From Chiloscyllium plagiosum (lineage: Eukaryota), in contig NC_057757.1 of NCBI RefSeq assembly GCF_004010195.1, forward strand, positions 8,338,759-8,402,758: 64,000 nucleotides of DNA. The letters run 5' to 3'. Both the position numbers and the translations under genes were made by a program. Below, one piece after another: positions 9,315-57,710 of the stretch (positions are counted from its first letter, which is position 1; each line of letters begins with the position of its first letter). Under the pieces are notes generated by a model, which ran no database searches, was not told the origin of the DNA, and saw nothing but the letters and a program-made list of their open reading frames with translations.

Positions 9315-9387
9315 TGTGATTGCCAGGAATCAAACCCAGGTCAGCTGCTCAGAAGGCAGCTATACTCAGCACAGTAGCACCATCAGT
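9315..9387 (-). pseudogene. tRNA-Gly(TCC)-derived pseudogene
   Basis: Reverse strand reads ...GAGTATAGCTGCCTTCTGAGCAGCTGACCTGGGTTTGATTCCTGGCAATCACA, resembling vertebrate tRNA-Gly(TCC), with mutated anticodon loop and B box. Confidence 0.6.
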
Positions 9388-23910: not shown

Positions 23911-24827
23911 TTATATGTTAAATTTAAAAATCTTCACAATGAAATTGACAGAAAATTTAATGCCATTCCTTAACTCATTTCTGAACTTACTCTGGGTCCC
24001 TGCATAAATAAATGGGTTTATGCATGAACTTAAAATCTGAAGCATGTACCCACTTTCTTCCAGGTTGTATTTGGATTTGTTGTAATTGGAACCTGAGAAA
24101 TAACTCATGTTTGAAATTCTGACGTAGAGAAATGTTAACACATACAGCAGCCATAACAGGAGGAAACTGCCCGAGATACAGAAGAGCAGGATGATGGACT
24201 TTCTCCGGTTCCTCACCTCCGTGTCATTCAGATTTTCCACTTGTTTTCCAACATGGAGTCTTTTGCGAGTTTGAATGGCCTTTAGAATTTGTTTGACAGT
24301 CACAGCATTGAGCAGTAAGATCAAAACAAATGGGAGGCAAGGGGTTGAAATGAAATTAATCCAATGATATGCAGCCCATGAAGGCAAGGTGTAAAATATG
24401 GACTTAATTTTGCAATACCATGGTACATTACCAATTGTATACAATGGTTCGTAAATGAAATACCAGAATGTATTTTTGATACAGCTCATTCCACAAACTG
24501 CCCCTATAACCACAGCTGCTACTTTCTCTGTGCAATATCTTGTCTTCAATTTTGGGCAAGAAATAGCTACAAATCGATCAATAGTGAATATGACAGTTGC
24601 CCAGACAGAACAATCCTTGCTTCCAGACATTAGCACAAAATTGACACTACAGACTGGAGTGACATACAGGACGCTGAATGGGAAGTAAATTCCAACAATA
24701 CGGTTCAATATTACAGCTGTAATAATGACCAACAGGTCTGTCACCGCCATGAATGCAAGGTAAGAAGTGATGCATCTGGAGAGACCACACCTTCCTCTGT
24801 ATAGTATCACAACCACTGCCACGTTAG
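23911..24827 (-). CDS. GPR139/GPR142-like class A GPCR, exon 2 (intact; full protein ~328 aa)
   Basis: Open 7TM reading frame with MAVTDLL, CSVW..IDRFVAI, RRKSIILLF, SSCINPFIY; acceptor ttgcag| at 24828. Confidence 0.93.
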
Positions 24828-26816
24828 CTGCAATGTGAAAAAAAGGTGAATCCAGAGGATGAATGAAATGGAATAGAGATAAAGTGTGAGCAGAACGATT
24901 AGACTTGACTGCCCTATAAAGTTTGTGCCTAATGAGAGTGCAGCCTTATGGTCTAGTCAGAAAATGGTAACTTTAGCTTTAACTTATTCAGATAAAGACA
25001 TACCATGCACCAGCACTCCCACTGGAGCTACACAGGAGAATCAGGATAAGGTATTTCCTTCATCAATCATGCATTTTGAAACAACATTTAAACACATATA
25101 GGTAAGATACCACTTAACTATAGCTCCATAAAAAAGGATTGAGAAAAGGACCAATTCGGAGCATTGCCTCAGTATGACCTCTGCATGTTCACTGAGCAAC
25201 CATCAGTCACAGGTCATTTTGAAGATCAAGCTGACAGTGAACCACGAGCGGAGTTAGAGACTGAGAATGGAAACCTCGCATTTTGTATATGAAGAAAGAA
25301 AAAAACTCATGAAGAAAGAATCCAGATGCCTTACATTTCACCACATGCACACACTTTTTGTTAACAATTTGTTACAAAATACTATTTCGCTGCAGTCATT
25401 TGTTACATTCAGGCAAGAAATTTTAAACCCCTGAATACTGCGACTTCACATCATGCATGTTATATTAGGTAGAGTAAGAAATATAACATTGAGATAGTTA
25501 CCCCTTGATTGTAGCAAACCAATAACAAATCCAATCATTACATTCAATACCTTTCCAGTCTCATCCAGTATGTAAACCTGTCACAAAAGGCAGGAGGTTT
25601 AGAGAGGTTTCTGAGGACCATTCCTTTTTACAGAGAGGCGGTGAGGTCTGGAATATACCGTCTGGGTGTGTAGTGAAGATGGAAAACCTGACACCATTCA
25701 AACAAAGGATGTGGATGAGCACTTGAGATGGCATAACGTTCAAGGCTCTGGGTTTGAAAGTGGGACTAGTGTAGATTTCGAGTAATTTTTGTTGTTGCAG
25801 ACTTGATGAGCCTCTTCTACACTATATTGATCTATGCTTCTATGGTTACACTCCTGCGATCCAGATAATGAAGTTGCACACCAGAATCAAGTATTCACTG
25901 CATTTTTAGCTTACATTTCAGAGTGAAACATTACATGTGGATACTTACCATCTTCAGTCCATGCTGGTGTCAACATCTTTCCCTTCATAATCATTTCAAA
26001 TCAAACTGTTGGGATAGATTGTGAAATAACTACAATGGAGATGGGACTTCAACATCTGACCCAAACTTTGGAACACTGTTTGGGAGTCCAACCACAGCTC
26101 GTCAATGGTCCTTTGCCTCAGTCCTCACCTTCGGCAGAACTGGGGTTCCACCATAAGTTGAATCAAAATGACTGGATTCAGAGACCAGAGTGCTCATCTT
26201 TACACCATAGAATGTATTGCTTACAGTTTAGCAATTTTGCATGTCAAGTGAACTTCCCTGCATGACAGGAACAGAACATGCAATTATTTTTGTACCATCA
26301 GTGCATGTACAGTTATTTCTCAAACTCAAACCTCATGGCACAGTGATAGAGACCCGACTACACTGTCACAAGGCCCTTTTTGGGTTAGGTTTCTCGATAT
26401 AACAGGCTCAAGAGATGACCCACTTAAAGCTCTCCACAGGTACATAGTTTATGTTATGTTATAAAATCAACTTGTGCGTCAGAAACACTTACATTTTACC
26501 ATACTTTATCTATTCCTTCAGGGAATGTAGCCATCTTCACTGGCTGGACCAGCATTTATTGCCTCTCTCAGTTGCCCTGAGAATCGTCTTTGAGAGTTTC
26601 TCCTGTGAATATCTGACATGCCTTCCCTATCACCGCTGGTCAGAGTGTGTTTAGCTGACTGGATGTCAACTATTGGGAGCTGTATAAGATCAATCTTTTT
26701 CCTACAGTCTGTCTTCCTTTAAAACACTATTTAAAAACACACTTAACAAACAATTAAGTTTTTTTTTGCATCAAGTTGCTCACCATTGTACTGGATAACT
26801 TGCTGGTCTGACCACC

Positions 26817-29505: not shown

Positions 29506-30394
29506 AAGTGCATGCCGGTAAATGCAGAAACAGCAGTGAATCTGATCAACACAACACCATCTTAACTGGAGATGTTCGGGATGGGCCATAAATACTGTTT
29601 TAGTCAGGGATCCCCACATATACAAAGTAAAAATAATTGAGGGGAGGACAGTACAATTTATAATAAGAAACATTATTAAAAAATCAAACAGAATTTTAAC
29701 ATAAGGCAAGTAAGAGTGTCAAAGAATAGATAATGATAATAAATTGGCAGCTGATGTAAAAGGTTAGTCATTATACAAATCGGATAATGGTAATCAGACA
29801 AGGGCTGATTCTGTCCCAAAATTGCAAATGTAGGTCGTGCACACTGAGCTGAAGTAATAACTGAGAAATTAAGATTTGTTTTATGGGGGGTGATAGGATG
29901 GGACAAACACAGGGAGACCTGTGGGAGCAGAGTCCCTGTGCATATTTAAGACTGAGAGAGAGAAATCCTTGTCGGAGCTAATTACTGCACATGCTGGATT
30001 CTGTACTGAAAACAAAAAAATGTTGGAAATCACAGCAGGTCAGGCAGCATCCATGGAGAGAGGGCAGGCTAATGCTTTGAGTTTATCTCCATCAGAGATA
30101 GATCCTTGATCAGTCGGAGAATCGAGGTTTACAGGGAAAAGGCAGGAAAGTGGTCATGAGGAATTCCAGATCAGCCACGTTCCTACTGAATGGTGGAAAA
30201 GGCTGGAGGGGCCAAATAAATAGTAGATCTGAGGGGAGTACTGAGGATCAAAGGGATCTTAGTGTACAAGTCCATAGATCGCTGAAGCTGTTAGCACAGG
30301 GAGACAGGATGGTTTAGATGATATGCTCGTCTTCATTAGCCAGTGTGAAAAATCACGCAACACCAGGTTATATTCCAACAGGTTTATTTGGAAG

Positions 30395-30430
30395 TATTAG
30401 TTTTCGAAGCACTGCTTCTTCATCAGGTCG
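30395..30430 (-). ncRNA. Minimal hammerhead ribozyme motif in a PLE-type short repeat
   Basis: Reverse: GAC-CTGATGA-A-GAAGC-AGT-GCTTC-GAAA-ACTA; intact core and 5-bp stem II; stem I/III weakened. Confidence 0.6.
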
Positions 30431-30544
30431 CTGTGTAGCAGGATCACAGCATCATGAAACTGAAACGAAATATTAAACTATGTTCCATCCCAGTCCAACA
30501 CCAGCACCTCCACATCAGGTCTTCATTCACCAGGGAATAGAATA

Positions 30545-33500
30545 TCAAACATAGTATACAGAATCTGAGTGCATCCCCAGATGTTACAATCTTATAAATG
30601 AGGTCTTGATGAGGCAATGGAGACCATCACACATTCAGGTGGATGGGAAATGGGCAGAAGTTCACCAAGTTGCCTTACTGGTGAGTTATAGAAAGGAGGT
30701 ACTGCAGGTAGCAGATGAATTACCAGTAGGAGGTCATTTGGGAGTAAGGAAAACTTATACAAAATACAAAAAACATTTTTATTGGCCTGGACTGCATAGA
30801 CACGGGGTTGAATTCTGCAAAACATATCCGGTAATAGGAAAACCCGACAGCAATAAAGCCAACACCTTTAATATCCATTACTGCATTTGAAGGACCTTTT
30901 ACAAAGGTTTTAATTGATTGCAGAGGACCGTTATTAAGTGGGAATCAATATTTGTTGACCATAATGGCTGCATCTACTAATTTTTCAGAGGCCATTCCAT
31001 TGCATAGTACCATGGCAAAACGGATTATAGAAGTTAACCTTTTACTCAATGTGGACTACACTCAGAAATACAATCAAATGAAGTGTTACATTTTCATTAA
31101 AATTATTCCAGGAATGGACAGCTTAGAAATAATACAATGCAAATCCAGAATAGCAGGGAGGTTTAGAACAGTAGCACCAAACTTTAAAGACCTTGTCAAG
31201 TGCTCAGAGTTGAGTCTGTGCAGGGGATTGGGATAAAGGAATTCCACTTGTACTTTTGAAAATGGAGTGCACCAAATGAATCTTCCAAGGTTAGTTCATT
31301 TGTATTAGTTGTTAGTTGTGAGATGAGAGGACCACTGAAATTAATTAAGGCAAAATTGTTGAGTCAGAGTTCAGAGACCACATATTTGGATTATTTGTCA
31401 AATTTTTAAGATAGGTTAAATTGAGTGGAAAGCTTGGCTAGATATCATATAAAAAACAGCGTGTGATGAAACCGGAAGCAGACAAGAAATCAAAAACTCA
31501 CAGTTTTGTTAATTGAGACAATGTGTTAGTGTTACTTCCATTGAAAGGTGAACCTCTAAAGAAAGGTTTAGTGAACTTTATCCAGTAAAATGGAAATAGA
31601 GTGAGGTGAATTGTTTCATAAGAATGCCAAGACAGAAAGAAATCTTCAGAGTGTGTCATGTGAATATGCTCAAATAGAGATAGAGTTAGATAGAGAAGAA
31701 AAGCAGAAGGAAAATGTTTTACTGATTATAACAAAGAGTGAGGAACCTATTTCAGAGGATTCTGAATTGGACATTGCTCAAATTAAACTGGACAGTGCAG
31801 AAGCTCTCAAAAATTGAGATAAATTATTGAGATATCTTCCAGAGGAAAGTCAAACTGATCTGCAAGAGCTATTACAATTACACAGGGAGATATGTGGGAA
31901 TAAGCTAGGAAGTACTAATCAAATTACATAAGATGTAAACAATGGAAATGCTGTTCCAATTCAGCAATATCGTTATAGACTTAATCCTGTCAAAGTTGGC
32001 ATAGGTTCTAAAAGAGATTGTACAACCAATGTCAGTTGCAGTGACTGGAGCTCACCCATCGTAAAGGTGACAAAATCTGCTGGTACCCAATGATTATGGG
32101 TGGACTATCGCAAAGTCAATACACTGACAAAGTCTGATTCATATACTATTCCACATTTGGAAGACTGTATTGAGGTGGGGCAAGCAATTTATATTTCTAA
32201 GTTGGACCTACTCAGAGCATACTAGCAAATACCTTTCTCTGAAAAAGCAAAGACAATTTTGGTTTTTGAGACGCTGAATGGACTGTACCTGTTTAACGTC
32301 ATGCCATTTGTTATGAAGTATGTGCTCGCCACATTTCAAGATTAACCAATAAAGTCATTCCTGGATAGTGTGGTGTACATCGGTGACCCTTAGACACATA
32401 TGGAAGGAACATTTGTGGCATCTATCGGAATTGTTCAATTAACAATGGGAAGCAAACTTGGTGATAAAGCTGGATAAGAGTGAGTTCACAAAAGCCAAAG
32501 TCACATTTCTTGGCCATGTTATCCAACATGGTCAGATGGTCAATGGGATTTGAAAAGTTATTCAGGAGTTTCCAACACCATTGACAATGAGATCAGTACT
32601 GTGAGTCCTAGGATTGAATGGAATTTAGTTGAAGTTTGTACTGAATTTTAAGTGTGGTTGCTCCACTGATTGAATTATTTAAGACATATCCAAAAATTAC
32701 CATGGACGATGAACTGTCAGCAGGCATTTGACAGCCTGAAAGCTGTGCTACCCACTGCTCTGGTGTTAGCCACACGCAGTTACACAAAGCCAATCAAGGT
32801 GGCTACCGGTGAGAGTGATGTGTGCATGTCAATGCTGTACATTTATAAGAAAATGACAAGATAAAAAAGACATGTTTTACAGAAAATTGAATAATAAATC
32901 ACAGAAATATTTCTATAATTATGAACGAGACTTTGAGTTTGATATTGCAACATTTCAACATTTATATTGCCAGTAATGTTTCTGAGACAATTGCATATAC
33001 CGACCATAACCCATTAAAGCTTTCAGGAAATCTTGAGGATAAAAATTCCAGACTGTTTAGATGAAGTTTATTACTGCAACCAGTCAATTTGAAAGCTATA
33101 TATGTGGCAGGATGGGAAAACATAACTGCTGTTTGTGATGTCACAACTTTGATGAAGGAAGACCGAGGTGTTCAATGGTAGGACAGAACATATTGAAATG
33201 TACTGTATCAGTGATTGTTTGCGTGCTTAGAGTCAATATAAAGTAAATGTATATTAGTGTACTAGTAGCAGGAGACAAAAGTTGTTTATAAAATGAGGCC
33301 ATCTTTGTATATTGATGGTTTATGGGCTTTTTTTAAAGAATGGAGAGCTGAGAATACTATGGCTTTAAGAGGTGTACTTTGTTCTTTTTTTATGAAGAAG
33401 AGTTGAGTCAGTCAACAAGCAGTCTGCTTCAAAGCAAACAGCTTGTGAGACCTTGTTTTTTTTAAAAAAATTCGAACACTAGAAGCAGTCTGTTTGGGTG

Positions 33501-33952
33501 GGGTCAAGCTCACACACAAACATGATATTTACTTTTATCTTTCAGCAGCTGCTGAGGGTCTTTAAACTTAATGTGGTAACTTTTATTCCTCTCTCTGTTC
33601 CAGCTAAAAGCTGGGGTTCTCTTCCTGCTGCTAGAATTGCACGTGAGACAATCTCTTTTACTGAAGTTGCCTTTGCCAAAGGTGTGTTTATGCGATGTTC
33701 CTTTCTTAGAACTATTAATTAGAAGTTATTTTATATAATGTTTTGTTATGCATTTCAATAGTTACAGTGAATCCAATTCTGCTGTTTTTACTTTGTCTAT
33801 ATTTTAACTGTTGTGCAAAAATAAAGTTTGTTTTGTGCAAAGTCAAATATTTTGACAGATCAAATGGCACACTTACCTTTACTAATAAACGGTTAGAGTC
33901 CAGGCTATCTCCTTCATTCATGTTGAGGAGGTTTGGTGTCGGGTCTGTAACA
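30545..33952 (+). mobile_element. Degenerate Gmr1-like Ty3/Gypsy LTR retrotransposon (INT-RT-RNaseH-3'LTR)
   Basis: Integrase GGHLGVRKT..FYWPGL..FCKT (30.6-30.9 kb), then RT WSSPIV..VDYRKVN..SKLDL..VMPF (32.0-32.4 kb), RNase H YTDHNPL (~33.0 kb), purine tract and TG...CA LTR at 33349-33952. Confidence 0.85.
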
Positions 33953-33959
33953 CAGGATC

Positions 33960-34645
33960 CGGCCACAGTTGACTGGGAACAGCTCCTTGTGGATAGGTCT
34001 ACAGCAGAGTAATGGGAAACATTCAAAAGGTACCGGGGAGAGTACAAGTCCAAGATGTATCCACTGGGGGGAGTATAGGATTAATAATCTCAGATAAGTG
34101 TGGATGTCTAGGGCAATTCAGGACTGTATAAGGATGAACAGAAAGCATTTTAGCAAGTCCAAATGAGGCAATTCAGATGTGGCCCTAGAGAATTATGGAA
34201 AGTGCAAGAGAGAATTGAGAAGGCAATGTGAAGAGCAAAAAGGGGAATGAAAAATGACTTGTAAAACTATTTGGGAGAATTATAAGCTATGTCATGAATT
34301 CATATGTGAGAGGAGGTTAACTAGGGAAAGTGTAGTGTATGTTAGGGACCAAAGGGACAACCCATGTGTGAAGCTGCAGGATATTGGAAGCGTTTAAAAA
34401 GAATGTTTCTCTTCAGACTTCATTTTAGAAAAGAAGAACATAGGTGTGGAAAAGAGTCTATGAGAAGCTTGTACAGGAAATGGGGAGGCATCGGAGGCTC
34501 ATTCAGGTTTAAAAATGGACGTCCCCAACCCAGAATTGTATCCCAGGCTGCTGTAAGAGGTGAAGTAGGAAATTACAGAGTCTCTGGCACACAGTTTTAA
34601 TTCCTGTCTGGGAACAGTGGAAGTGCCAGAGGCCTGGAGGATGGC
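33960..34645 (+). mobile_element. CR1 ORF2 linker fragment, decayed
   Basis: VDWEQLL.., YPRLL, VPEAWRMAKV remnants. Confidence 0.55.
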
Positions 34646-34904
34646 AAAAGTGATTTCGGTAGCTAGATTACAGGTGGGAATGGATCCTACCATGATTGAA
34701 AGGCCATTGGAACATCAGGCAACTGAGATGTTACAGGAAGTATATCCTGGGATTTTTCCTGACTGTGTGGTAACAAGGTTACAAAGGCTCAGGTAGAAAC
34801 ATGATGATTGTCATTGCACCCAGCTGAGGGAGGGGAAAGTGAGATTGTATACTTGTGAATGAGGTTATATTGTCACCCAGCAGGGGGAGGGCGAAGATTA
34901 AATT

Positions 34905-34932
34905 TTGTGCGTGTGTGAGTGAGTGAGAGAGG

Positions 34933-34968
<36 letters not shown>
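34905..34968. repeat. (GT)/(GA)n microsatellite
   Basis: Direct. Confidence 0.9.
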
Positions 34969-34973
<5 letters not shown>

Positions 34974-34994
34974 GCACCCAGCCCTAGAGACAAT

Positions 34995-35029
34995 CACCTG
35001 ATGAAGGATCGTCGCTCCGAAAGCTAGTG
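34995..35029 (+). ncRNA. Minimal type I hammerhead ribozyme motif
   Basis: Stem I CAC/GTG, CUGAUGA core, stem II, GAAA, palindromic AGCU stem III and CUA cleavage triplet. Confidence 0.7.
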
Positions 35030-35085
35030 TGCTTCCAATTAAACCTGTTGGACTATAACCTGGTGTTGTGTGATTTTTAACCTTG
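34995..35085 (+). mobile_element. 91-bp hammerhead-bearing insertion with 14-bp TSD
   Basis: GCCCTAGAGACAAT at 34981-34994 and 35086-35099; insert starts CAC-CTGATGA-AGGA..TCC-GAAA-GCTA-GTG. Confidence 0.85.
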
Positions 35086-35677
35086 GCCCTAGAGACAATG
35101 GTGAAATTGTGTATGTTTGAATGAGATTATTAAAGTCCACAAGAGAGGAAGGTAAAGGTCATGTTGTGTTTCTTTTACAGATTTTAGCAGTACCAAGTCA
35201 AGGATAATGAAGCTGTGTTATTTCTGTATGTGTGGGAGTAGGTTTGTGTGCATGTCGGTTTGTGTGTGTGATCTTAATAACATTTGCCAGAGGGAGATGA
35301 AGATGAAATTGTGGGCATCAGCTGCAGTTTGTTACATCACACAGTAGAGGGAGATGTGTGTGTGAAAATGCACGTGTGTAAATGTCTACGCCTAGCACTA
35401 TGGCTGAAGTTTGCAAATCAAAACACAATGCAGGATAATATAAAGGAGGTGGTTATTAGTGTTGCATCTTTAGAATTATACCCCTGAATGAGATTGTGTA
35501 TGTAAGTAAGAACCTTCTTAAATTGAACGTATGTAAATCGGGCTGCCTTGAACACTGTCTCTTTATTATGCCAACTGCAAGATTATATGAATAAGTCTTA
35601 GTCTATGAAATATTTATTTTTTGTCAAAATTTAAAAATCTTCACAACAAAGTTGATGGAAAATTTAATACCACTCCT

Positions 35678-36526
35678 TTACTTATTTCTGAACCTACATT
35701 GGGTCCCTGCATAAATAAATGGGTTTATGCAGGAACTTAAAATCTGAAGCATATAGCCATTTTCTTTCAGATTGAAATTGGATGCTTTATAATTGAAACC
35801 TGAGAAATAACTCACTTTTGTAATTCGGACATAGAGAAATGTTAAAACATACAGCAACCATAACGGGAGGAAACTGCCAGAGATACAGAAGAGCAGGATG
35901 ATGGACTTTCTCCGGTTCCTCATCTCCGTGTCATTTTCTGCCTGTTTACCGACGCGGAATCTTTTGCGAGTTCGAATGGCCTTTAGAATTATTCTGACAG
36001 TTACAACGTTGAGCAATAAGAGCAAAACAAATGGGAGACAAGGTGTTGAAATGTAATTAATCCAATCAAATGCAGCCCATGCAGGTGAGGTATAAAATAT
36101 AGACTTAATTTTGCAATACCATGGTATATTACCAACTGTATATAATGGTTCGTGTATGAAATACCAGAATATATTTTTGATACAGCTCATTCTACAAACT
36201 GCCCCTATAATCACAGCTGCTACTTTCTCTGTGCAATATCTTGTCTTCAATTTCTGGCAGAAATGGCTACAAAACCAAAATAGTGAATACCACAGTTGCC
36301 CAGACAGAACATTCACTGCTTCCAACCATTAGAATAAAATTAACATTAGAGACTGGGGTGACATACATGACACTGACTGGGAAATAAATGCCAACAGTAC
36401 GGTTCAATATTACAGCTGTACTAATGACCAGCAGGTCTGTCACCACCATGAATACAAGGTAGCATGTGACGCATCTGCTGAGACCGCACCTTTCTCTGGA
36501 AAGGATCAGAATCACTGCCAAGTTAG
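35678..36526 (-). pseudogene. GPR139-like GPCR pseudogene exon 2 (duplicate of 23911-24827)
   Basis: Colinear with the 23.9-kb gene; net 1-nt deletion at ~36272-36280 destroys the DRF motif and shifts frame; premature TAA at 35678-80. Confidence 0.9.
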
Positions 36527-38585
36527 CTGCAATATGAAAAAGAAGCACAATCCAGAGAATGAGGGAATAGTGAGACAGACAGCATGAGCAGCACCAGTGT
36601 ACTTGACTGCCTTAACAAAGTTTCATCTTCAAATTTGTGTGAACTTTTCAGATCTGGCACTTTATACTGAAACCAATTTTCTATTTTGTCAACAGTAAAT
36701 TTTAATTTGAAACAGTAAACCAGACACAAAGGCACACTGTATAGTTATCAAAATGTAAAATAATATAATATTATTCATATTAAATGTGAAGATTGTGGAG
36801 AAGGAAGTAAAGGTATTGCAGCAATTAGGTCAGAACTATCATTGTTAAAAGAACATTAAATTAGTATCTAAAATGTAGTAAGAACATTCAAAATTGAATC
36901 TGACAATTTCACTCTCAACAATTAAAATGCGATATTATTATTCACATTATTCAGTCTGTTAAACAGAAACGTATCACAATTGGATACGATTATGGTTTTC
37001 TGAATTTGCATTGGTACTGTTGGTGAATCCTCAGGAGCAATTTTCACTAATTCCCCCCGATTCCTCGTTGTAAGGTTCAGTTATATACATTAACACACAG
37101 GTTATGAGGTTTTGTTTTCAGACGGGGTTGATTCATTCAGTTGGTTGGGTGACTGGGATGGAATGCCATTTAATGGTAATAGAGTAGGTTCAATTGCTGC
37201 ACTGGCTGAGGTTAACATGAAGATCTCTCCTTATCAACCTCTCCCCTTCCCTGAAGTATGATGACCTCCAGGTTAACCCACCACCAAACATTTCTCTGTA
37301 TTGAGGGAGTAACCATTTGGTCAAGATGGACAATGGCAAATTTAGCTTTACCTCATTTGGATAAAGACATACCATGCAAGAAGCACTCCCTCTGGAGCTG
37401 CACAGCAGAATCAGGATAAAGTATTTCCTCAAGTCAATCATGAAAATTGAACTACTACATCTAAATACATGTAGGAAAGATGCCACATTACTATAGCTTC
37501 TTAAGAAATAATTGAGAGCAGGAACAATTCAGAGCATTGCCTCAGTATGACCTCAGCATGTTCACTGAACAACCTCAGTCACAGGTCATTTTGAAGATCA
37601 AGCTGACACTGAACCACAAATGGAATTAGAGACTGAGAATGGAAACCCAGCATTTTGTGGTATGGAGACCAAAATACTTATGAAGAAAGTGACCAGAAAC
37701 AATGCATTTCCACGATATGCATGCACTTACTTTTAACAATTGTCACAAAATAACATCAGTTTGCTGGAGTCATTTGTTAGATACAACAAAGAAATTTTAA
37801 CCACTGAATATTGTGACTTCACCTGAGGCATGTGATATTACATGGATAATAGTGATCATAATGTCAAGATACAGCTACGCCTTGATTGCAGCAAACCAAT
37901 AACAATACAATCATTACATTCAATACCTTTCCAGTCTAATCCAGCATGCAAACCTGTCACAAAAGGAAGGAGGTTTAGAAAGGTTCTGAGGGCAACTTTC
38001 TTTCACCCTGAGTGTGATGAGGTCTGGAATATACTGTCTGGGGGTGCAGCTGAGATGGGAAACCTCATGCCATTCAAACAAAGGATGTGGATGAGCCTTT
38101 GAGATGGCATAACATTCAAGGCTATGGGCCTGTAGATCTAGAGTAACTTTTATTGGCGCGGATTTGACGGACCTCTTCTACAATGGTATGATTTTATAAA
38201 ATCAACAAGTGCTTTTGAGAAACCTACATTTTTCCATACTTTTCCTATACATTGGTAGAATGTAGGTATCACTGGCTGGACCAGCTTATATTCCTCTTCC
38301 TAGTTTCTCTTAGAATTGTCTTTGGAGTTTCTCATGTGTATCTCTGACATGCTATACCCACCCTACCCCTCCTCCCCTTCTGCCCCCCCCCCCCCCTCCA
38401 CAATCCTGTTCGGGGTGTCTTCAGCTGACTGGATGCTAATTGTTGGGACTTGTGTAAGGCCAGCCGTTCTCCTACTGTCTCTCTATGTTGAAGACGCTAC
38501 TTGCAAACACAATTACCGACTGACCTTTCTTTCTTTTCCGTAAAAGTGTTTAACATTCTATTTGATGACTTGTCAGTCTCACTAC

Positions 38586-39549
38586 TATTATGGATCAGAA
38601 ATGACCCCCTGAAGTACTTGTAGAAGATAGCCTGTTACCTAACGTTTTCTTAGCTTAATGGTAGATGTGGTGTAAATTCCTATTGCTCTGCCTGATTGTC
38701 ATGACAGCACAGCACTGACATTGACTTTATAAACATCATCTATTACCCTTGGTCATCTGAAGAGACTTACCTGACACATTGATGTGAGTAGAGTATGGCA
38801 TTTTGATGTTTCAGCCTTTGATCTCTGCCTATAAGTTCTGTGTCGGTATGCTCTCCTCTCACTGCACCTGACAAAAGGACTGCACTCTGAAAGCTTGTGG
38901 TTTTAAATACACCTGTTGGACTACAACATGGTGATGTGTGATTTTTGAGTTAACTACTCCAGTCCAAAACCGGCACCTCCACATCATCGATACAATGTGA
39001 CTTGTCAAATTACTTGATGTTAAGCAAAGCATAACTTATTTAAAAACAGTAGTTCAGATATAAATAAAAGGAAGTGAAATTTTGAATACCTTAGCTGCAT
39101 TGGAAAACTGAATAAAAAATACAGTGCCTATTCCTAATGAACAGTTCCAAAGCAGTGACATCCCATAAACACACCCTTTGGCAAACATGCAAATTCAGAT
39201 GCAGAATCTCAAATGCAGTTCTCCAATCCAGGAGGAAAAACAAAATAACAAGAAGGTTCAGAGAGAATAGCAGTGAGCAGACATTCACTGAAGCACCCAA
39301 ATCTTTTTAGACTCAAACAGCTTCTACTGCTTAAAGCTAAATAAAACACTAGAAAGCCTGGACTGAGAGAGTTGACTATACCCATTCATCAGGCTGCTTC
39401 CATTGCTCCAACGTTTTAAAAAACACCTAGTCCTCCCAAGTTCTTTATTTAAGTTCTGTTCAGTAGCCAGTTTGTGCCTTTTGCATTACAATCTCGCTTC
39501 AAAAAAAGGACAACATTACCTCTTAAAGTGACAGCATCATCTCGCGACA
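38586..39549 (-). mobile_element. Solo LTR (Gmr1-like family) with an internal ~300-bp PLE-type insertion
   Basis: Reverse begins TGTCG..CTTTAAGAGGTAATGTTGTCCTTTTTTTGAAG, resembling the start of LTR 33349; nested insert ~38680-38990 with a decayed hammerhead at 38865-38899. Confidence 0.6.
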
Positions 39550-40044
39550 TTACAGGTGACACAAATGCATGGTTTCTTGTAGCTGGTCGCTATCATTCAC
39601 TCAAATTGATAGCTCAAACCTTGGGATAACATCTGCAGTCCAACTATCAAGAATGATAAAGGAAACATTTGAAGGGAAAACTTAATGCATTAAATCAAAA
39701 AATTGCAAATTTGAATAGAAGGTGTATGATTCACTGGTAAAGGTATTACATTACATGATATTTTAAAGGGAACACTGTTAAAGGCGGCAAACTATTATGT
39801 ATGAGCCAATAAAATATTCAGTTAAAGGTGAGAAATGATAGAATAGCCAAAGCAATGGTATAGTTAAAAAGTAGAATTATCATTAAAGAGATAAATTAAT
39901 ATGCTCAAAGCAGTTATATTTCCAGTAACCACATGACATCACTGAAAGGAAAGAAGTTACACAAAAGTGATCAAAGCCACTTTGTTTTGAGGCAGCTAAA
40001 ATCAAAATGATTTTCAAAACATTTTTAAAAATTCAGTACAGTAC

Positions 40045-40114
40045 CTGGCACCCTGATAGTTGCAAGGATGGAGTAATAAATTGCAAAGAGCAGACCGTTT
40101 GGTGCACCATGCAT
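40045..40114 (-). pseudogene. Exon 1 of the 35.7-40.1 kb GPCR pseudogene
   Basis: MHGAPNGLLFAIYYSILATIRVP plus G|GTACTG; paralogous to 27930-27999. Confidence 0.85.
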
Positions 40115-40440
40115 TTCGGTAAGATCCACATTCCACATGAAGTGGGTGCGACAGTTATACATGATTTGAGGCTCCCAGGTGTTTGAGTTTGGAAATTAAT
40201 TGTAAAATTGCAACAGTGAAGAAGTTGTTTTGAAAAGTCTGTGGATTGACCTCATACGAACCAAAGGTGAAATGCGAAAGACCCCCCTCTGGTAACAATC
40301 ATGCATCCTGAGAAAACATATTTGGTAACAAAAGAAATGGAGTCATTACTTACAGCAAACACTGAGAACGCTGGACAAACTCAGCAGGTCTGGCAGCATG
40401 TGGAGGGAGAAATAGTGTTTGGAGTCTGATGTGACACTAT

Positions 40441-41465
40441 ATCATAGAGTCATAGAGATGTGCAGCACGGAAACAGACCCTTCAGTCTAACCAGTCCATG
40501 CTGACCAGATATACCAACCAAATCTAGTCCCACCTGCCAGCCCACGGCCATATCCCTCCAAACTCTTCCTATTCATATACGCATCCAAATTCGATTTAAA
40601 TGCTGTAATTGTACCAACCTCCATCACTTCCTCTGGCAGCTCATTCCATACACATACCACTCTCTGCATGAAAAGTTGCCACTTAGCTATCTTTTTATAT
40701 CTTTCCCCTCTCACCTATACCAATCCCTCTAGTTCTGGACTCTCCCGCCCCAGGGAAAAGACTTTGTCTATTTATCTTATCCATGCCCCTCATAATTTTG
40801 TAAACCTCTATAAGGTCACCCCTCAGCCTCCAATGCTCCAGGGAAAACAGCCCCAGCCTGTTCAACCTCTCCTTATAGTTCAAACCCTCCAACCCTGGCA
40901 ACATCCTTGTAAATCTTTTCTGAACCCTTTCAAGTTTCACATCATCTTTCTGATATGAAGGAGACCAGACTTGCACGCAATATTCCAACAGTGCCTTAAC
41001 CAATGTCCTGTACAGCTGCAACATGACCTCCCAAATCTTGTACTCAATACTCTGACCGATAAAGCAAAGCATACCAAACGCCTTCTTCACTATCCTATCT
41101 ACCTGTGACTTCACTTTCAAGGAGCTATGACACTCCAAGGTCTCTTTATTCAGCAACACTCCCAAGGACCTTACCATTAAGTGTATAAGTCCTGCGAAGA
41201 TTTGCTTTCCCACAATGCAGCAGCTCACATTATTTGAATTAAACTACATCTGCCACTTCTCAGCCCATTGGCCTATTTGATCAAGATGATTGATGCAAGC
41301 CAATGCACATTCCTGGGATACTGGTTAGCAAGGTTAGATCTCACGGAATAGAGGGAGAACTAGCCATTTTGATATGGAACTGGCTCAAAGGTAGAAGGGA
41401 GAGGGTTGTGGTGGGGGGTTGTTTTTCAGACTGGAGGCCTGTGACCAGTGGAGTGCCACAAGGAT
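40441..41465 (-). mobile_element. CR1 LINE with inverted 5' segment
   Basis: 40441-41290 is a CR1 3' end on minus; 41310-41465 is upstream RT (SKVRSHGIEG..VTSGVPQGS) on plus; flanked by CACTAT/CACTAT. Confidence 0.85.
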
Positions 41466-41824
41466 CACTATCAGAACTGAGTTCTTTGTCAGAGCAGCTT
41501 CGATGAGTTACTGAAGTGCATCTGTTGGATGATAAACACTGCTGTTAATCTGCATAGAGTCCAGTTAGACAGCACAGAGACAGAGAATTTCATGAGAAAA
41601 TAATTAATGTCTCTGAAAGACTGAACTGTCAAGATGAAGTGAATTCCAGCTGTGAGGTGAGTCTGACTACCAAGACCACATGTGACTGGGTGTGGCCTCA
41701 AGAAACCCCAGCAAACTTGGAGTAACAAGGAATGGTGGGGTGGGGGGAGAGGAGGAGTTGAATTCTCTGTTCTGTTGTCCTGTTACATAGGAAAATGTTG
41801 TGGTTATTGGAGATCAGTCATCTC

Positions 41825-42800
41825 ACCCCCAGGACATCTTTGCAGGTTTGCAGGAAGTGGGAGGATTGGAAAGAAAAGTTGTTCAGGGTGAGGATCAGTT
41901 CAGTCAGTCGAAGGAGGGTGTCAGTGGAAGGGTATTGGTTGGTACGGCGGGAAAGGAAGAAGCGGAGGCCTTTAAGTCTTTCGTGATGGGGGATGGAGGT
42001 GTACAGGGACTGTATGTCCATGGTGAAGATTTCTTCAAAGACTGCAATTTCCCCCAGACGTGATCGATGATGCTCTCCACCGCACCTCCTCCACTTCCCG
42101 CTCCTCCGCCCTTGAGCCCCGCCCCTCCAATCGCCACCGGGACAGNNNNNNNNNNNNNNNNNNNNNNNNNNNNNNNNNNNNNNNNNNNNNNNNNNNNNNN
42201 NNNNNNNNNNNNNNNNNNNNNNNNNNNNNNNNNNNNNNNNNNNNNNNNNNNNNNNNNNNNNNNNNNNNNNNNNNNNNNNNNNNNNNNNNNNNNNNNNNNN
42301 NNNNNNNNNNNNNNNNNNNNNNNNNNNNNNNNNNNNNNNNNNNNNNNNNNNNNNNNNNNNNNNNNNNNNNNNNNNNNNNNNNNNNNNNNNNNNNNNNNNN
42401 NNNNNNNNNNNNNNNNNNNNNNNNNNNNNNNNNNNNNNNNNNNNNNNNNNNNNNNNNNNNNNNNNNNNNNNNNNNNNNNNNNNNNNNNNNNNNNNNNNNN
42501 NNNNNNNNNNNNNNNNNNNNNNNNNNNNNNNNNNNNNNNNNNNNNNNNNNNNNNNNNNNNNNNNNNNNNNNNNNNNNNNNNNNNNNNNNNNNNNNNNNNN
42601 NNNNNNNNNCCCCTCCCCCAAGTCCCTCCTCCCTACCTTTTATCTTAGCCTGCTGGACACACTTTCCTCATTCCTGAAGAAGGGCTCATGCCCAAAACGT
42701 CGATTCTCCTGCTCCTGGGATGCTACCTGACCTGCTGCGCTTTTCCAGCAACACATTTTCAGCTCTGATCTCCAGCATCTGCAGTCCTCACTTTCTCCTT
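41825..42800 (+). mobile_element. Penelope-like element with inverted 5' RT piece, spanning an assembly gap
   Basis: Minus 41825-42025: FTMDIQSLYTSIPH..LTELILTLNNFSF (PLE RT); plus 42026-42145: FFKDCNFP..IDDALHR; tail 42610-42800 with hammerhead-like CTGAAGA-AGGGC..GCCC-AAAAC-GTC. Confidence 0.8.
42146..42609. other. Assembly gap (N run)
   Basis: Ns. Confidence 1.
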
Positions 42801-42875
42801 TAACATCTGGACAATATCCAGGCTAGGGCTGCCAAGTGGCAAATGCATCCAGGCCAGACAAATAACATGCAATGA

Positions 42876-42970
42876 TTCTGGATCAGCGGTGCTGGAAGAG
42901 CACAGCAATTCAGGCAGCATCCGACGAGCAGCAAAATCGACGTTTTGGGCAAAAACCCTTCATCAGGAAT
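42876..42970 (-). mobile_element. 95-bp hammerhead-bearing insertion with 10-bp TSD
   Basis: CATGCAATGA at 42866-75 and 42971-80; reverse starts ATTC-CTGATGA-AGGGT-TTTT-GCCC-AAAAC-GTC. Confidence 0.8.
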
Positions 42971-43094
42971 CATGCAATGACCAGCACCAATTGGAGAGAC
43001 CTAACTATTAGCCCATACCATTTAATTCTGTGATTATCACTGACTCACCAACTATTGACATCCTTGGGTTGCGCATTGACCAGGAATTGAACTG

Positions 43095-43286
43095 CACAGC
43101 AGTTCAGGCAGCATCCGAGGAGCAGTAAAATCGATGTTTCAGGCAAAAGCCCTGTATTCCTGATGAAGGGCTTTTGCCCGAAATGTCGATTTTACTGCTC
43201 CTCGGATGCTGCCTGAACTGCTGTGCTTTTCCAGCACCACTCTAATCTAAACTCTGGTTTCCAGCATCTGCAGTCATTGTTTTTAC
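43095..43286 (+). mobile_element. Hammerhead-bearing insertion with a 60-bp inverted 5' copy and 15-bp TSD
   Basis: TSD CCAGGAATTGAACTG at 43080-94 and 43287-301; arms 43094-153 and 43167-226 are reverse complements (3 mismatches); core CTGATGA-AGGGC-TTTT-GCCC-GAAA-TGTC. Confidence 0.85.
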
Positions 43287-43324
43287 CCAGGAATTGAACT
43301 GGACTTACCATATAGGTGCTATGA

Positions 43325-44345
43325 CGTTTTTGGCCGAGCTGCTGGGTTACCGTGTAGATGTTTTGTTATCATGCTGGGTGACATCATTAGGGTGACTTCC
43401 GTGAAGTGCTGTTGTTCTGTTCCACTTGGTTTTTCTGTGGGTCCGGTCTACTGGGGGGAGTGTCACTTCCGGGTCTTCCCTGCAGCAGTTTGTACATGGA
43501 GTCGAGAATTGGATTGTCCTGGAATGGTTACATTGTCATAGCTGAATTGATGGCCCTCTTGTTCTGTGTGTATGGAGATGAGAGAGAGGAAGGAAGATGA
43601 AGAATAGATACAAAAAGTAATTGTTAACAACGGATACCATATCAGCTTCATCTGCTAATGCCTGTCCAACAGACATTGCTAAGAAGAAACTGTACCTACC
43701 AACACACTGGCCACCTTGCCATATGTGAAGAACATATCCGGATTAACTACCAGGCTGTTAAAACCGTAGGTATTATGGTAGCACACCAACCATCAGCCAC
43801 ACTATGCCAACGACTTACCAGGACCAAGGGCCCCATACCCACAATATGTAGGACCAGTGTGGTGCACAAAATTCCCTGTAACAACTGCAGCAAATGCGGC
43901 ATCAGAAAAACAGGAAGAAAACTATCCACCTGACTTCACAAACACCAACTGGCAACTAACTAACTGGATCCACTCTCCCTCATCTCTGTACACAGACCAA
44001 GAGAGCTATCAATTTAGTCTATGACAAGTGAACCAGAGTCACACAAAACAGTTCTTGGAAGCCTGGTTTTCAATCAAAAAAGGCCATTAACAAAAAAATA
44101 GAGATAGACCTAGGAGGCAAACACATCGAGATAGACCCAGTATACAAACACACAGATGGACCCAGTGTACAAACCGCAGAGAAGACCTGGAAGTGACACT
44201 CACCTCAACAGACCAGACCCACCTTAAAACCAAGTGGGACAGAACAATAGCGCTTCACAGAAGTCGCACTGATGATGTTACCCAACATGGTTTTGAAACA
44301 TCTGCATGGTAACCCAGCAGCTCAGGCAGCTAACCAACTACCTCA
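43325..44345 (+). mobile_element. Penelope-like element 3' part (GIY-YIG) with inverted terminal (pLTR) copies
   Basis: SVVHKIPCNNCSK..KTGRKLST (GIY-YIG-type); 43330-43480 is an inverted copy of 44180-44328; hammerhead GCA-CTGATGA..GAAA-CATC-TGC at 44266-44305. Confidence 0.75.
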
Positions 44346-45937
44346 TCACAAGCTACAGAACTTGGTGAAAACTGTACAAAATAATTAGGTACTATGGCTT
44401 CCAGAATCTCGTGGAAGCTCGGAATACAGCTATGAGTAACCCACCTCCTGAATCCCCAAAGCCTGTCCACCATCTCCAAAACACAAGTCAAGAGCGTGAC
44501 AGAATTCTCCCCAATTGCTTGGATGAGTGTAGTTCTAAAAACAGTCAAGAAGTTCGATACCATCCAGGACAAAGCAACCCACTTAATTGACTCTGCACTC
44601 ACAAACACCCACTCCTTCCACTGTCGCTCAGTAGAACAGTGTGTAATATCTTCAAGATGCACTGTCCGAAGTCACCAAAGTTCCTTAGACAGTACCTTCC
44701 AAACCCACAACCTGTACCATCCAGAAGGATAAGGGTGACAGATACATGAAAATACTGACCCCTGCACGTTAACCTCAAACTCACTCACTATCCTGACTTG
44801 GAAGCATGTCACCTTTCCTTCTGTGTCACTGGGTCAAAATCCTGGAGCTCCCTCCTTAACAGCATTGTGGGTCTACCTACACCACATGGACTGCAGCAGT
44901 TCACGAAGACAGCTCACCCCTGCACTTTATGAAGGAGCAACTGGCAACAGGCAATAAATACCGGACCAGCGATGACCATATTCCGTGAGTAAATAACAAA
45001 AAGTGCATGCTGGTAAATGCAGAAACAGCAGTGAATCTGATCAGCTCACCACCGTCTTCACTGGGGATGTTAAGGATGAGCCATAAATGCTGTTTTAGTC
45101 AGAGATCCCTGCATCCCATGCACAAAGTAAAAATAACTGAGGGGGAGGGGGGAAACATTAGAATTTAGAATAAGGAACACGATGCAAAAATTCAAACAGA
45201 AATTGAAATGTTACGTTAACAGTTAATAAGGGAAATAAGAGTGTCAAAGAAAAGATAACAATAATGGATTGGCAGCTGATCTAAAAGATTGGTTGCTATA
45301 CAAATAGGCTAATGGTCATCAGACAAGGGCTAATTATACCCCAAAATCACAAAAGTAGGTAGTACACACTGACTTGAGTTAAAAAATGAGAAATTAAGAT
45401 TTGTTTCATGGTGGATGAAATAGAGGCATAGCCACAGGGAGAGCTGAAAGAGATAGATCTTTGTAGGAGCTAATTACTTGAAACTGTACTGAAAACAAAA
45501 AAATGTGGATATCACAAAGGGTGGGGCAGCATCCATGGAGAGAGGGCAAGTTAATAATTGAGCTTATCTTCATCAAAGATAGATCATCGAAAAGTCGTGA
45601 ATGAAGGGTTACCGGGAAAATGCAAGAAAGTGGATGTGAGGAATGTCGGATCAGCTATGTTCCTATTAAATGATGGAACTGACTGGAGGGGCCAAATATA
45701 TGGTCAGTCCGAGGCACTGAGAACACCAAATTCTCGAATCATTTCTAACCAAGCTCATTAGCACAAAGATACAGATAACAATTCCAGGTGTAATCTTCTG
45801 AAATGAAACTGGGCTATTAGATAAATTGCCGGAGAGGGAATATTTTTGAACCAGTGACCTTCGTACAGTTACATTTAGCATAAATATGGAACAAGACAAA
45901 GACAACATGGGTAATGCTTTGATGTCCGGTACAGACA

Positions 45938-48490
45938 AGAGTCATAGAGATGCACAGCACGGAAACAGACCTTCGGTCCAACTCGTCCATGCCAACTACA
46001 CATCCCAACCTAATCTACTCTCACTTGCCAGCACCTGGCCCATATCCCTCCAAACACTTCTACTCATATACCCATCCAGATGCCTTTTCCATATTGCAAT
46101 TGTACTAGCCTTCACCACTTCCTCTGGCAGCTCATTCCATACACACAGGACTCTGTGCATGAAAAGGTTGCCCCTTAGGTCTCTTTTACATCTTTCCCCT
46201 CTCACCCTAAAACTATGCTTTCAAGATCTGGACTCCCCCACCAGAGGGAAAAGACCTTGTCTATTTACACTATCCATGCCCCTCATGATTTTATAAACAT
46301 CCAAAAGGACACCCCTCAGCCTCCAACACTCCAGGGAAAACAACCCCAGCCTTTTCAACCTTTCCCTATAGCTTAAATCCTCCAACCCAGGCAACATCCT
46401 TGCAAATCTTTTCTGAAACCTTTCAAATTTCATAACATCTTTCCGATAGGAAGGAGACCAGAATTGCACGCAATATTCTAAAGTGGCCCAATCAACGTCC
46501 TATACTCAATACCCTGACTAATAAAGGCAACCATACCAAACGCCTTCTTCACTATACTATTGATCTGCGACTCCACTTTTAAGGAGCTATGAACCTGCAC
46601 GCCAAGGTCTCTTTGTTCAGCAACACTCCCTGGGCCCTTACCATTAAGTGTATACGTCCTGCTAAGATTTGCTTTCCCACAATACAACACCTTACATTTA
46701 TCAATATTAATCTTGATCTGCCACTCCTCAGCCCATTGGCCCATCTGATCAAGATCCTGTTGTACTCTGAGGTAACCTTCTTTGCTGTCCACTACACCTC
46801 TAATTTTGGTGTCATCTACAAACTTACTAACTATACCACCCCTTGGTTCACATCCAAATCATTTACTTAAATGACAAAAAGTAGTGGACCCAGCACCTAT
46901 CCTTGTGGCACTCCACTGGTTACAGGTCTCCAATCTGAAAAGCAACCCTCCACCATCATCCTCTGTCTTCTCCCTTCAAGCCAGTTCTGTATCCAAATGG
47001 CTAGTTCTCCCTGTATTCCATGAGATCTAACCTTGCCAAACAGTATCCCATGGGGGAACCTTGTCGAACGCCTTACTGAAGTCCATACAGATCACGTCCA
47101 CCACTCTGCCCTCATCAATCCTTTTTGTGACTTCTTCAAAAACCTCAATCAAGTTTGTGAGACATGATTTCCCATATACAAGGCCATGCTGACTATCCCT
47201 AATCAGTCCTTGACTTTCCAAATGCGTGTAAATTCAGGATTCCCTCCAACAACTTGCCCATCACTGACATCAGGCTCACTGGTCTATAGTTCCCTGGCTT
47301 GTCCTTATCACCTTTCTTAAATAGTGGTACCACATTAGCCAACCTCTAGTCTTCCGGCAGTTCACATGCAACTATCAAGGATACAAATATCTCAGTAAGG
47401 GGCCCAGCAATCACTTCCCAAGCTTCCCACAGAGTGCTAGGGTACACCTGATCAGGTCCTGGGGTCTTATCCACTTTTATGTGTTTCAAGACATCCAGCG
47501 CTTCCACCTCTGTAATATGGACATTTTTCAATATGTCACCATCTATTTCCCTACATTCTTTATCTTCTGTGTCTTTCTCCACAGTAAACACTGATGCAAA
47601 ATACTCATTTGATATCTCCCCCATCTTCTGCAGCTCCATACAAAGGCCACCTTGCTGATCTTTTGAGGGGCTCTATTCTCTCCCGAGTTACTCTTTTGTC
47701 CTTAATCTATTTGTAAAAACCCTTTGGATGCTTCTGAACCCTACTTGCCAAAGCTATCTCTTGTCCTCCTTTCTCCCTCCTGATTTCCTTCTTAAGTATA
47801 CTTCTACTATCTTTATACTCTCAGGATTCACATGATCTATCCTGTCTATACCTGACATATGCGCCCTTCTTTTTATTAACCAAAACCTCAATTTATCAGC
47901 ACTCCCTACAGCTCCCAGCCCTTCCTTTCACACTAACTGGAATATACTGTCTAAGGACTCTCGTCATCTCATTTCTGAAGGCTTCCCATTTTCCAGCCAT
48001 CTCTTTACCTAAGAACATCTGCGCCCAATCAGCTTTTGAAAGTTCTTGCCCAATACCATCAAAATTAGTCTTCCTCCAATTTAGAAGTTCAACGTTTAGA
48101 TCTGGTCTATCCTTTTCCATCACTATGCTCACTGGCCCCAAAGTGCTCCCCCACTGACACTTCAGTCACCTGCCCTGCCTTATTTCCCAAGAGTAGGTCA
48201 AGTTTTGCACACTCTCTAGCAGGTTCATCCACATACTGAATCAGAATTGTTCTTTGTACACACTAAAATAATTCCTCTCCGTCTAAACCCTTAACAATGT
48301 GGCAGTCCCAATCTATGTTGGAAAGTTAAAATGCCCTACTATAACCATCCTATTATTCTTACAGATAACTGAAATATCTTGCAAATCTGTTTCTCAATTT
48401 CCTGCTGACTATTAGGGGGTCTATAATACAATCCCAATAAGGTGATCATCCCTTTCTTACTTCTGAGTTCCACCCAAGTAACTCTTTTGA
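45938..48490 (-). mobile_element. CR1 LINE (EN to 3' end, ~2.5 kb)
   Basis: Minus ORFs LLGLYYRPPNS, NWRKTNFD, NEYFASVFT, GKSCLTNLIE..DFSKAFDKVP, FWSPSYRKD. Confidence 0.93.
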
Positions 48491-49509
48491 ATCTGAGATT
48501 TTTCTGGCAAAGTTGGACTGGATGTGGATAGAAGAAAAAAATGATGAAACAAAAGGATTTCAAAAGTGACATTCTAAAGACACAATTTAGACATGACCCA
48601 ACAACATAAATAGTTATATTTCCAGATCAAGAGACCTATTCCTGTCCCAGAAGAATACAGGGTGAGAGAGAGCAGCAAAAGAAAGATTCTTATCATGACA
48701 AAAAATTTCTAAAATTATAGCTCAATAGAAAATCTAAATGGATGAAATATAAATTAAAAACAAAACTCAGAAAGGCCAAGGGAGCATAGGGAAATTATTC
48801 GCGGTATAGTTTGACAAATACAAAAGATATTTTACCAGTAGATTAAGACCAAATGGATATCTATGAAAATAAGATGTCAAAGAAGTACAAGATGATTGAT
48901 GTAAGCCAATGCACATTCGCATACTAATGTTCATACACAAACCTTGAAATCCAATGCATTACTTATTATTTTATAACTTCAATCGCTTTGAATCATGTAA
49001 CAGAGTTTGTGATTTATTCCATGTTGATGAATATAAACTGGTTGTGGTGAAGATCCATGTGAAAGATCGGTCTGAAGGAGCATCTCATGAACTGACATTG
49101 AAGTCGACATTTTCCCATGCCCAAGAAATCTGCATCAAGGGAAGATAGATCGGGTCATCAACACTGTGTTGGAGAACTATATCCCATTGTTTCGCTGACT
49201 ATTAAGATAAGGCATTTTTTAAATAACACCCTAGCTAGCTGCTCATGTTTCTTTAACTATAACATTGAAGACAGGAGCAGAGAGATGGTATCTGGATATG
49301 GCATCATTCATGAGGAGTGCTTATGCCCATAACATCGAATCTCCTGCTCCTCAGATCCTGCTTGACCTGCTGGACTTTTCCACTCTGACTCTCCAGCATC
49401 TCAGTCCTCACTTCCTCCTGATGGCTTCATTTAGGACAGTGATGTCATTAAAACCAATTAACTGGTCCAATACCAAGGATTTCCTAACATGACAGGCTAG
49501 GCAGGGTAT

Positions 49510-56808: not shown

Positions 56809-57710
56809 TTAATTTTCTGGCGATTGGTATCCTTTCAAGGGGGAAGTATGGCATTTCCCCTTGCACTACTCGCTACCTGGTGGTTATGGCAGCTGCTGAT
56901 CTGATGGTCATTATCACTGATGTTATAGTGAGGATATTTCGCTATTATTATTACCCACAGTCTTTCCTGAACATCACTCCTGTGTGCAGTGTTAATGGGG
57001 TCCTATTACGTGCTGCCACTGACTGCTCTGTCTGGTTCACTGTCACTTTCTCCTTTGACCGATTTGTGACCATTTGCTGTCAGAAGCTGAGAGCAAAATA
57101 TTGCACTGAGAAAACTGCGACTGTGGTTCTGGCAACAACCTGCACCCTGTTCTGTCTGAAAAACATCCCCTTCTACTTTCAATTTGATCATGTGAGAATA
57201 ATCAACAATGTTCCATTCTACTGTAAAACAAAGTTAAGCTACTTTACTGAGACTTGGTGGGTGGTATTAGATTGGCTTGATACAGTTTTGACCCCTTTAC
57301 TGCCATTCGCTTTAATTCTGTTCCTCAATGTTCTGACTGTCAGACACATTTTAGTGACCAGTCGAGTCCGGAAGAGGCTGAAGGGTGAGAGCAAAGGAGA
57401 GAAGCATAGAGACCCAGAGATGGAGAGCAGAAGGAAGTCTGTGATTTTGCTCTTCAGCATCTCTGGAAGCTTCATTCTCCTGTGGCTAATATTTGTTGTA
57501 GATTTCTTATATTATGTCATTCGAGGAATCAATCCTGATGATTACTCGCCTTTTCTAGATAACTTCAGTGCAGTTGGTTACATGCTGCAGAACCTAAGCT
57601 GTTGCACAAACACATTTATTTATGCAGCAACATTGTCCCGGTTCAGAGCGAAGATCAGTAACACAGTAAAATACCTGGTTACACGAATTCCTTGTGTTGT
57701 GAATAAATAA
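56809..57710 (+). CDS. GPR139/GPR142-like class A GPCR, exon 2 (intact; full protein ~322 aa)
   Basis: Acceptor ttccacag|; MAAADL, CSVWFTVTFSFDRFVTIC, DPEMESRRKSVILL, LSCCTNTFIY; uninterrupted to TAA. Confidence 0.94.

Follow-up and report, generated by a model that had tools for sequence, protein, structure and literature searches.

A 91-bp hammerhead-headed insert in a shark receptor-gene cluster, probably an end fragment of a Penelope-like element

The insert and its hammerhead motif

The window, by which we mean the whole 64,000-nt stretch of Chiloscyllium plagiosum contig NC_057757.1 that was analysed, holds rhodopsin-family receptor genes (7tm_1) clustered in tandem and many LINE remnants, and the named homologues of its retroelement fragment come mainly from sharks and rays. 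The intronless receptor genes all lie on the minus strand (11168–11680, 23911–24945, 35678–36611 and 56769–57710); the one at 23911–24945 has an open frame of 344 residues matching 7tm_1, and the paralogue at 35.7–36.6 kb is broken across two frames. A duplicated block occupies 23.7–30.2 kb and 35.4–45.7 kb. Also present are a GC-rich tandem array at 2290–5485 (period ~43 bp, ~85% identity between registers), a 66-bp GC-rich repeat at 61658–61827 (~2.5 copies, 94% alike) and, on the minus strand at 9315–9386, a tRNA-like match (33 bits, pairs broken) that is probably a SINE head.

At 34995–35085 lies an insert of 91 bp, enclosed by exact 14-bp direct repeats and belonging to a dispersed repeat family, family A, of the Penelope-like element (PLE) type. 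The features of this locus are:

34981–34994, plus strand: target-site duplication, left copy, 14 bp; its last 2–5 bases fit family A too (microhomology)
34995–35085, plus strand: 91-bp insert, a probable tail-less end module (pLTR part) of PLE-type family A
34995–35029, plus strand: minimal type I hammerhead motif, from a descriptor scan using the definition in PMC4209133
34995–34997, plus strand: stem I, 5′ strand
34998–35004, plus strand: core
35005, plus strand: extra A
35006–35018, plus strand: stem II
35019–35022, plus strand: GAAA
35022–35025, plus strand: palindrome AGCT
35026/35027, plus strand: predicted cut
35027–35029, plus strand: stem I, 3′ strand
35038–35058, plus strand: poly(A) signal (35038–35043) and family A poly(A) addition sites past 35055 and 35058
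35086–35099, plus strand: target-site duplication, right copy, 14 bp

The two repeats agree at 14 of 14 positions, a duplication score reached at none of 292 random anchors. These data support a sequence-only reading of the locus, which had proposed a 91-bp insert between perfect 14-bp repeats that arose by retrotransposition. Outside the tandem array at 2.3–5.5 kb, the window has only six exact 14-mer pairs spaced 60–400 bp apart, and the remaining pairs sit at other PLE-type inserts or at one short tandem repeat. Because family A sequence also matches the last 2–5 bases of the left repeat, the 5′ junction is placed to 34990–34995; the same reading had the insert begin exactly at the hammerhead, and the start at the motif edge stands, with its exactness relaxed to this interval. 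Among the full-span family A contigs listed, 14 of 20 align from 34990–34993. A tRNA-derived SINE was rejected as an identity for the insert, given no tRNA match at the locus and no A run at the insert's 3′ end.

Contig record 16 (organism C) enters from the right flank, carries the repeat once and then runs into 41 letters that the insert does not match, which is consistent with an empty site, short of proof. Together with the identity of the repeats, this suggests that the insertion is young. Two other candidate empty sites were set aside: the match in contig record 8 (organism B) is weak (40 letters, 85% alike) and contig record 7 merely stops at 35092. The paralogous gene block, which does not align at the 35 kb and 30 kb family A copies, supplied an empty site for neither, and run X4, which sampled a different individual of the species, gives no coverage to the right of the insert junction.

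The descriptor scan, run on both strands, found two hammerhead cores in the 64 kb, one of them at 34998. As the sequence-only reading had it, the head of the insert carries a minimal PLE-type hammerhead: a core of CUGAnGA and GAAA, stems I and II, an extra base between positions 9 and 10.1 (A35005), a G10.1–C11.1 pair (G35006–C35018) and, at positions 15–16, a palindrome that could allow a dimer helix III. This palindrome is AGCT in the insert, and a 4-base palindrome (AGCT or ACGT) occurs at 8 of 15 window anchors. Stem II of the insert copy has a mismatch at T35009, where the family majority pairs: the base there is G in 1,284 of 1,361 RNA reads and, in run X4, in ~98% of the family depth. 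Stem II sequences differ between family A and a second family, B (described below), with pairing in both; variation within family A falls mostly in loop II and past stem I, with no double compensatory change among the rows listed (27 others are unlisted). A search with hammerhead models, proposed along with the original reading, did not recover the motif, Rfam giving no hammerhead among nine matches up to E = 5. Free folding of the insert likewise did not yield the hammerhead (z-scores of −1.4 to +0.3, no evidence either way), and the monomer hammerhead fold comes to −2.0 kcal/mol versus −5.2 kcal/mol for the best fold. No frame opens in the insert's motif, where a stop follows nine codons. 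The predicted cut lies ~32 nt downstream of the insert start, so ribozyme cleavage did not make the insert's 5′ end; the putatively self-cleaving ribozyme appears to be a passenger in this copy.

Copies and transcripts of family A

Family A is a very large dispersed family. Contigs matching the stretch numbered 30,623, 48,828 and 42,458 in three organisms, figures that are contig counts and not copy numbers, with depth nearly all on 34985–35089. The original reading had also placed the family at three further positions in the window; these copies are real (81–83% identical), but they are not 90-bp units, one being a 312-bp insert and another, at 30 kb, an inverted copy.

30329–30533, no single strand: family A inverted insertion; duplication 30329–30343/30519–30533, 13/15
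30344–30483, minus strand: tail-less arm of the 30 kb insertion, extending ~57 bp upstream of the core
30484–30518, plus strand: tail of the 30 kb insertion
38674–38985, plus strand: family A copy with tail, 312 bp, aligned to an empty paralogous site at ~26906
60218–60342, plus strand: decayed family A copy with a 33-nt AC-rich tail (60310–60342)

The 5′ ends of these copies vary, two of the four in the window reaching 57 and 194 bp upstream. The longer extension belongs to the 38 kb copy (core at 38868), for which a duplication was looked for and not found. The 60 kb copy starts near the hammerhead edge, with an uncertainty over 60218–60228, and a duplication was not found there either. The upstream sequences of the 30 kb copy and the 38 kb copy aligned with each other no better than shuffles did (74 of 300 as good), and the 194 bp may therefore not all be family A sequence. 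At the 3′ side, the 33-nt tail (76% A+C) of the 38 kb and 60 kb copies, which pairs back with the module, is absent from the insert; contigs behind 35085 show both the tail and unique 3′ flanks (agreement 0.46–0.48). The optional tail, the variable 5′ ends and the head-to-head inversions of family A are hallmarks of PLEs.

When PLE homologues were compared by tblastn with the surroundings of the four family A copies, no open frame matched. Pattern scans for the module gave no match in viral contigs or in prokaryote genomes, and a 23-mer pattern gave none in metagenomes; three metagenome matches to a 19-mer pattern were dismissed as chance, none of them extending beyond 19–22 bases. A remnant with an integrase zinc-binding domain (PF17921; 30555–31236) adjoins the 30 kb insertion.

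RNA reads were drawn from one single-cell poly(A) run, of which 2% of reads were taken, and 2,181 of them matched the stretch. A runs followed 35055 in 411 of these and 35058 in 498 (909 in total), 12–15 nt behind the poly(A) signal, and RNA depth fell from ~1,740 to 740 at these sites. No reads entered the flanks of the insert locus and only 61 were 99% alike, so the reads reflect expression of the family and not of the insert copy. Some continued upstream (462 past 34990 and 344 past 34993), and reads span the predicted cut site. No site at which many RNA molecules begin or end was listed, at the motif edge included, nor a pile of read starts at 35027, in a fragmented single-cell poly(A) library of a kind that cannot show true starts. 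The insert passes the poly(A) sites by 27–30 nt and has no A tail, which argues that its template read through them. With the family A poly(A) site located within the unit, RNAs polyadenylated at that site cannot have served as the template of the insert.

Family B and other PLE pieces

A second hammerhead-bearing family in the window, family B, shares the anatomy of family A and offers a comparison with the insert through the following features:

41821–42800, no single strand: broken PLE, with an RT fragment at 41821–42030 (minus), a thumb fragment at 42030–42143 (plus), a gap, and a family B hammerhead end (core 42674)
42876–42970, minus strand: family B tail-less insert, 95 bp, starting at the stem I 5′ strand; exact 10-bp duplication 42866–42875/42971–42980
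43095–43286, no single strand: family B head-to-head insert; exact 15-bp duplication at 43080/43287
49309–49420, plus strand: decayed 112-bp copy of family B that starts at the motif edge; duplication 49298–49308/49421–49431, 10/11

The RT fragment shares 74% identity with a bamboo shark protein and 46% with a 901-residue protein that has RT and GIY-YIG domains and a CxxC linker. Through this match family B is probably the end of a PLE, by a link that spans the assembly gap (N at 42146–42609) between the RT fragment and the family B end. From the CxxC linker, family B looks Neptune-type. Pfam gave nothing on the RT fragment or on broken frames at 43.5–44.2 kb. A 158-residue protein labelled Proteus mirabilis (P0001), on a contig of 474 bases, shares 95% identity with the RT fragment of the window and is probably host contamination in a bacterial record.

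Of the five family B arms, three start at stem I, two of these sharing a start base; a fourth starts within the motif, and the fifth is the terminus of the long element. Within the head-to-head insert, the direct arm (43156) begins at the same base as the 95-bp insert, and the inverted arm begins inside the motif. At its 5′ edge the family B motif bears a putative initiator-like sequence.

The family B pieces cluster at 41821–43301, with an inverted RT/thumb junction at 42030. Next to them, at 43320–44340, a third family is represented by a broken PLE that has inverted ends (43336–43496 versus 44166–44323), frameshifted endonuclease-like frames and decayed hammerheads at 44269 (plus) and 43390 (minus). 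Decayed hammerhead-headed ends of other families lie at 30095, 28343, 23441, 51700 and 61445 on the minus strand and at 55678 on the plus strand. The 30095 end fragment has a 13/15 duplication ending at the core; this fragment and that at 28343 predate the block duplication, because they have counterparts at about 45580 and 40445.

The start at stem I and the origin of the insert

The window contains at least 16 decayed hammerhead-type anchors from several families. A duplication ending at the motif, defined as one with a score of at least 9.5 that ends −8 to +3 from the core, was found at 3 of 16 hammerhead anchors, which were hand-picked, compared with 4 of 292 random anchors (Fisher p = 0.004). 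These three are 34998, 42966 and 30095; a fourth anchor, 49310, scores 8.5. Within the window, then, the non-random 5′ ends that the sequence-only reading called for are supported. Head-to-head inversions account for 8 of the best-supported 15 of 32 family A joint rows (18 contigs), as seen among joints detectable only inside the 91 bp; the loose-end rows available were 24 of 533. All eight listed inversion rows have one arm that starts −9 to −1 from the core, for which a uniform null gives 7e-6, and a second arm that starts at 35021–35034. Twelve of the 18 inversion contigs fall within three bases of the stem I pairing register, and in 10 of the 18, from three species, the second arm starts at 35029 regardless of where the first one starts, a position at which a 2-nt subfamily gap makes alignments break. 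Small as the numbers are, a 5′ end at stem I recurs beyond chance in both families.

As to its cause, RNA that begins at the motif edge has not far from an even chance of being the explanation, and an enzyme that stops at stem I, or a new strand that folds back through it, stands somewhat below even; a start at stem I through chance is improbable. Shark PLE micro-insertions may also record two fixed RNA ends, the hammerhead 5′ edge and the cut site, because 35029 directly follows the cut in a subfamily shorter by 2 nt. As the aligner may itself break at 35029, this doubtful reading is a lead only. If it is true, the insertions would form a genomic fossil record of minimal PLE hammerheads cutting in vivo, and the hammerhead would build the head-to-head inverted ends of PLEs, either by cutting or by stem I fold-back. 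More broadly, the 5′-end pattern could bear on the role of the PLE hammerhead, as templates may begin at the motif, undergo cleavage by it or fold back through its stem. In the one purified PLE system, the hammerhead proved dispensable for insertion, and read starts at its cut were absent (PMC11167929).

We consider the insert to be probably a by-product of PLE copying, a short version of the terminal module that lacks the tail and has a preferred 5′ end. The original reading went further and saw a discrete, retrozyme-like mini-element; this part was not sustained, given that both ends vary, the tail is optional, the insert is single and starts ~32 nt before the cut, and the poly(A) site is internal. 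A non-autonomous mini-element whose short hammerhead-headed copies are themselves transcribed, with PLE protein copying them again in trans, in the manner of a SINE, would fit the recurrent 5′ end, the sizes of 91–125 bp in two families and the very high copy number. It also has precedents, in that pLTRs are reported in part of PMC3846280 to suffice in cis for mobilisation in trans and putative non-autonomous PLEs are known in Chlamydomonas (PMC8557442, in part). We nevertheless regard it as unlikely: longer copies exist, there is no tRNA-type head, the drop in RNA depth past the internal poly(A) site means that many transcripts stop short of the unit's 3′ end, and 806 RNA loose ends run on upstream of the motif. 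Ordinary random 5′ truncation, with the start at stem I a coincidence picked out by the reader's eye, is rather less plausible again. PLEs are typically heavily 5′-truncated (PMC8557442, in part), two of four family A copies begin far upstream, summed depth climbs gradually from 5′ to 3′ with no step, the junction has microhomology and the anchors were chosen by motif. Against this stand the excess of duplications at the motif, the two family B copies that share a start base and the clustering of all eight listed inversion rows at −9 to −1.

A non-LTR retrozyme monomer, produced by dimeric ribozyme cleavage, circularisation and reinsertion, is highly improbable, and at the insert locus this reading is largely refuted. 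Such elements resemble the insert in being short, non-coding, equipped with a type I hammerhead and related to PLE pLTRs, from which an origin has been proposed, and they have been found in one chondrichthyan genome (bioRxiv 10.64898/2026.07.22.740005). Retrozymes are, however, tandem and circular, with monomers running from cut to cut (PMC7229834, in part; bioRxiv 10.64898/2026.07.22.740005), whereas the insert is a single duplication-flanked copy that starts at 34990–34995, away from the cut at 35026/35027, and its motif is minimal and not canonical. Head-to-tail joints that restore the unit occur in 3 contigs, at single-copy depth, versus 30,000–49,000 contigs per run (units more than 40 letters longer being invisible to this count). 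Read starts do not pile up at 35027, in a library that cannot show true starts.

On the by-product reading, the insert is likely to be a dead end, copied from the terminal module (pLTR) of a PLE of the endonuclease-positive kind. PLE protein would nick the target and prime reverse transcription, leaving the 14-bp duplication; the duplication is observed and the enzyme conjectural. Of two internal start sites on the RNA, one on either side of the 33-nt tail, copying would use the nearer, which would leave the insert tail-less and without poly(A). Two classes of 3′ end are indeed observed, and their proposed cause is borrowed from an Anolis element, in which the tail lies between two internal reverse-transcription start sites (PMC11167929). 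The template may have been a transcript through the module's poly(A) site, for example read-through RNA or the leading part of the mRNA of an element downstream. Copying would end ~90 nt on, at the 5′ strand of hammerhead stem I, and the end would join the target through the 2–5 bases of microhomology. Fold-back through stem I would also account for the inversions in register, and self-priming has been proposed for PLE inversions (PMC3846280, in part). For a model in which the RNA begins at the motif, Drosophila offers a comparison: one end of an intron falls at the motif edge there (PMC4209133), and the transcription start lies 46 bp ahead of this intron (PMC2377424, in part).

Much of this has counterparts in described elements. 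Part of PMC4209133 reports minimal hammerheads in the pLTRs of metazoan PLEs and thousands of single motifs per genome, ascribed to truncated PLEs; family A shares with these hammerheads the core, the extra base between 9 and 10.1, the G10.1–C11.1 pair, the palindrome at 15–16 and a short stem I. Some of the single motifs occur as opposite-strand pairs, as in the family A inversions, and the Results and Discussion of that paper mention no family from sharks and leave the 5′ ends of single motifs unmapped. Endonuclease-positive PLEs (Neptune, Penelope/Poseidon) are described in parts of PMC8557442 and PMC3846280 as having an optional tail of 30–40 bp and an inverted pLTR. Family A resembles their insertions in its duplication, optional AC-rich tail, head-to-head inversion and 5′ junction microhomology, and differs in its preferred 5′ end at stem I and in having no frame that opens in the motif. 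The end of the family A tail, ~113–118 nt past the start of stem II, lies close to the 111–118 start site of the Anolis element (PMC11167929).

Solo minimal hammerheads from truncated PLEs are thus already known, and family A is a further member that adds a modest end pattern. The literature searched, a scope that leaves Repbase and subscription journals outside, gave no account of shark family A or of 5′ ends clustering at stem I; Fig. S2 of PMC11167929 maps genomic copy ends and may already show a 5′-end pattern. As an element the insert is ordinary, one among vast numbers of PLE end fragments, and it is the end pattern that could matter. Shark genomes hold tens of thousands of such short, duplication-flanked copies from several families. 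The module also supplies a poly(A) site that is in use, so that dispersed copies may end host transcripts.
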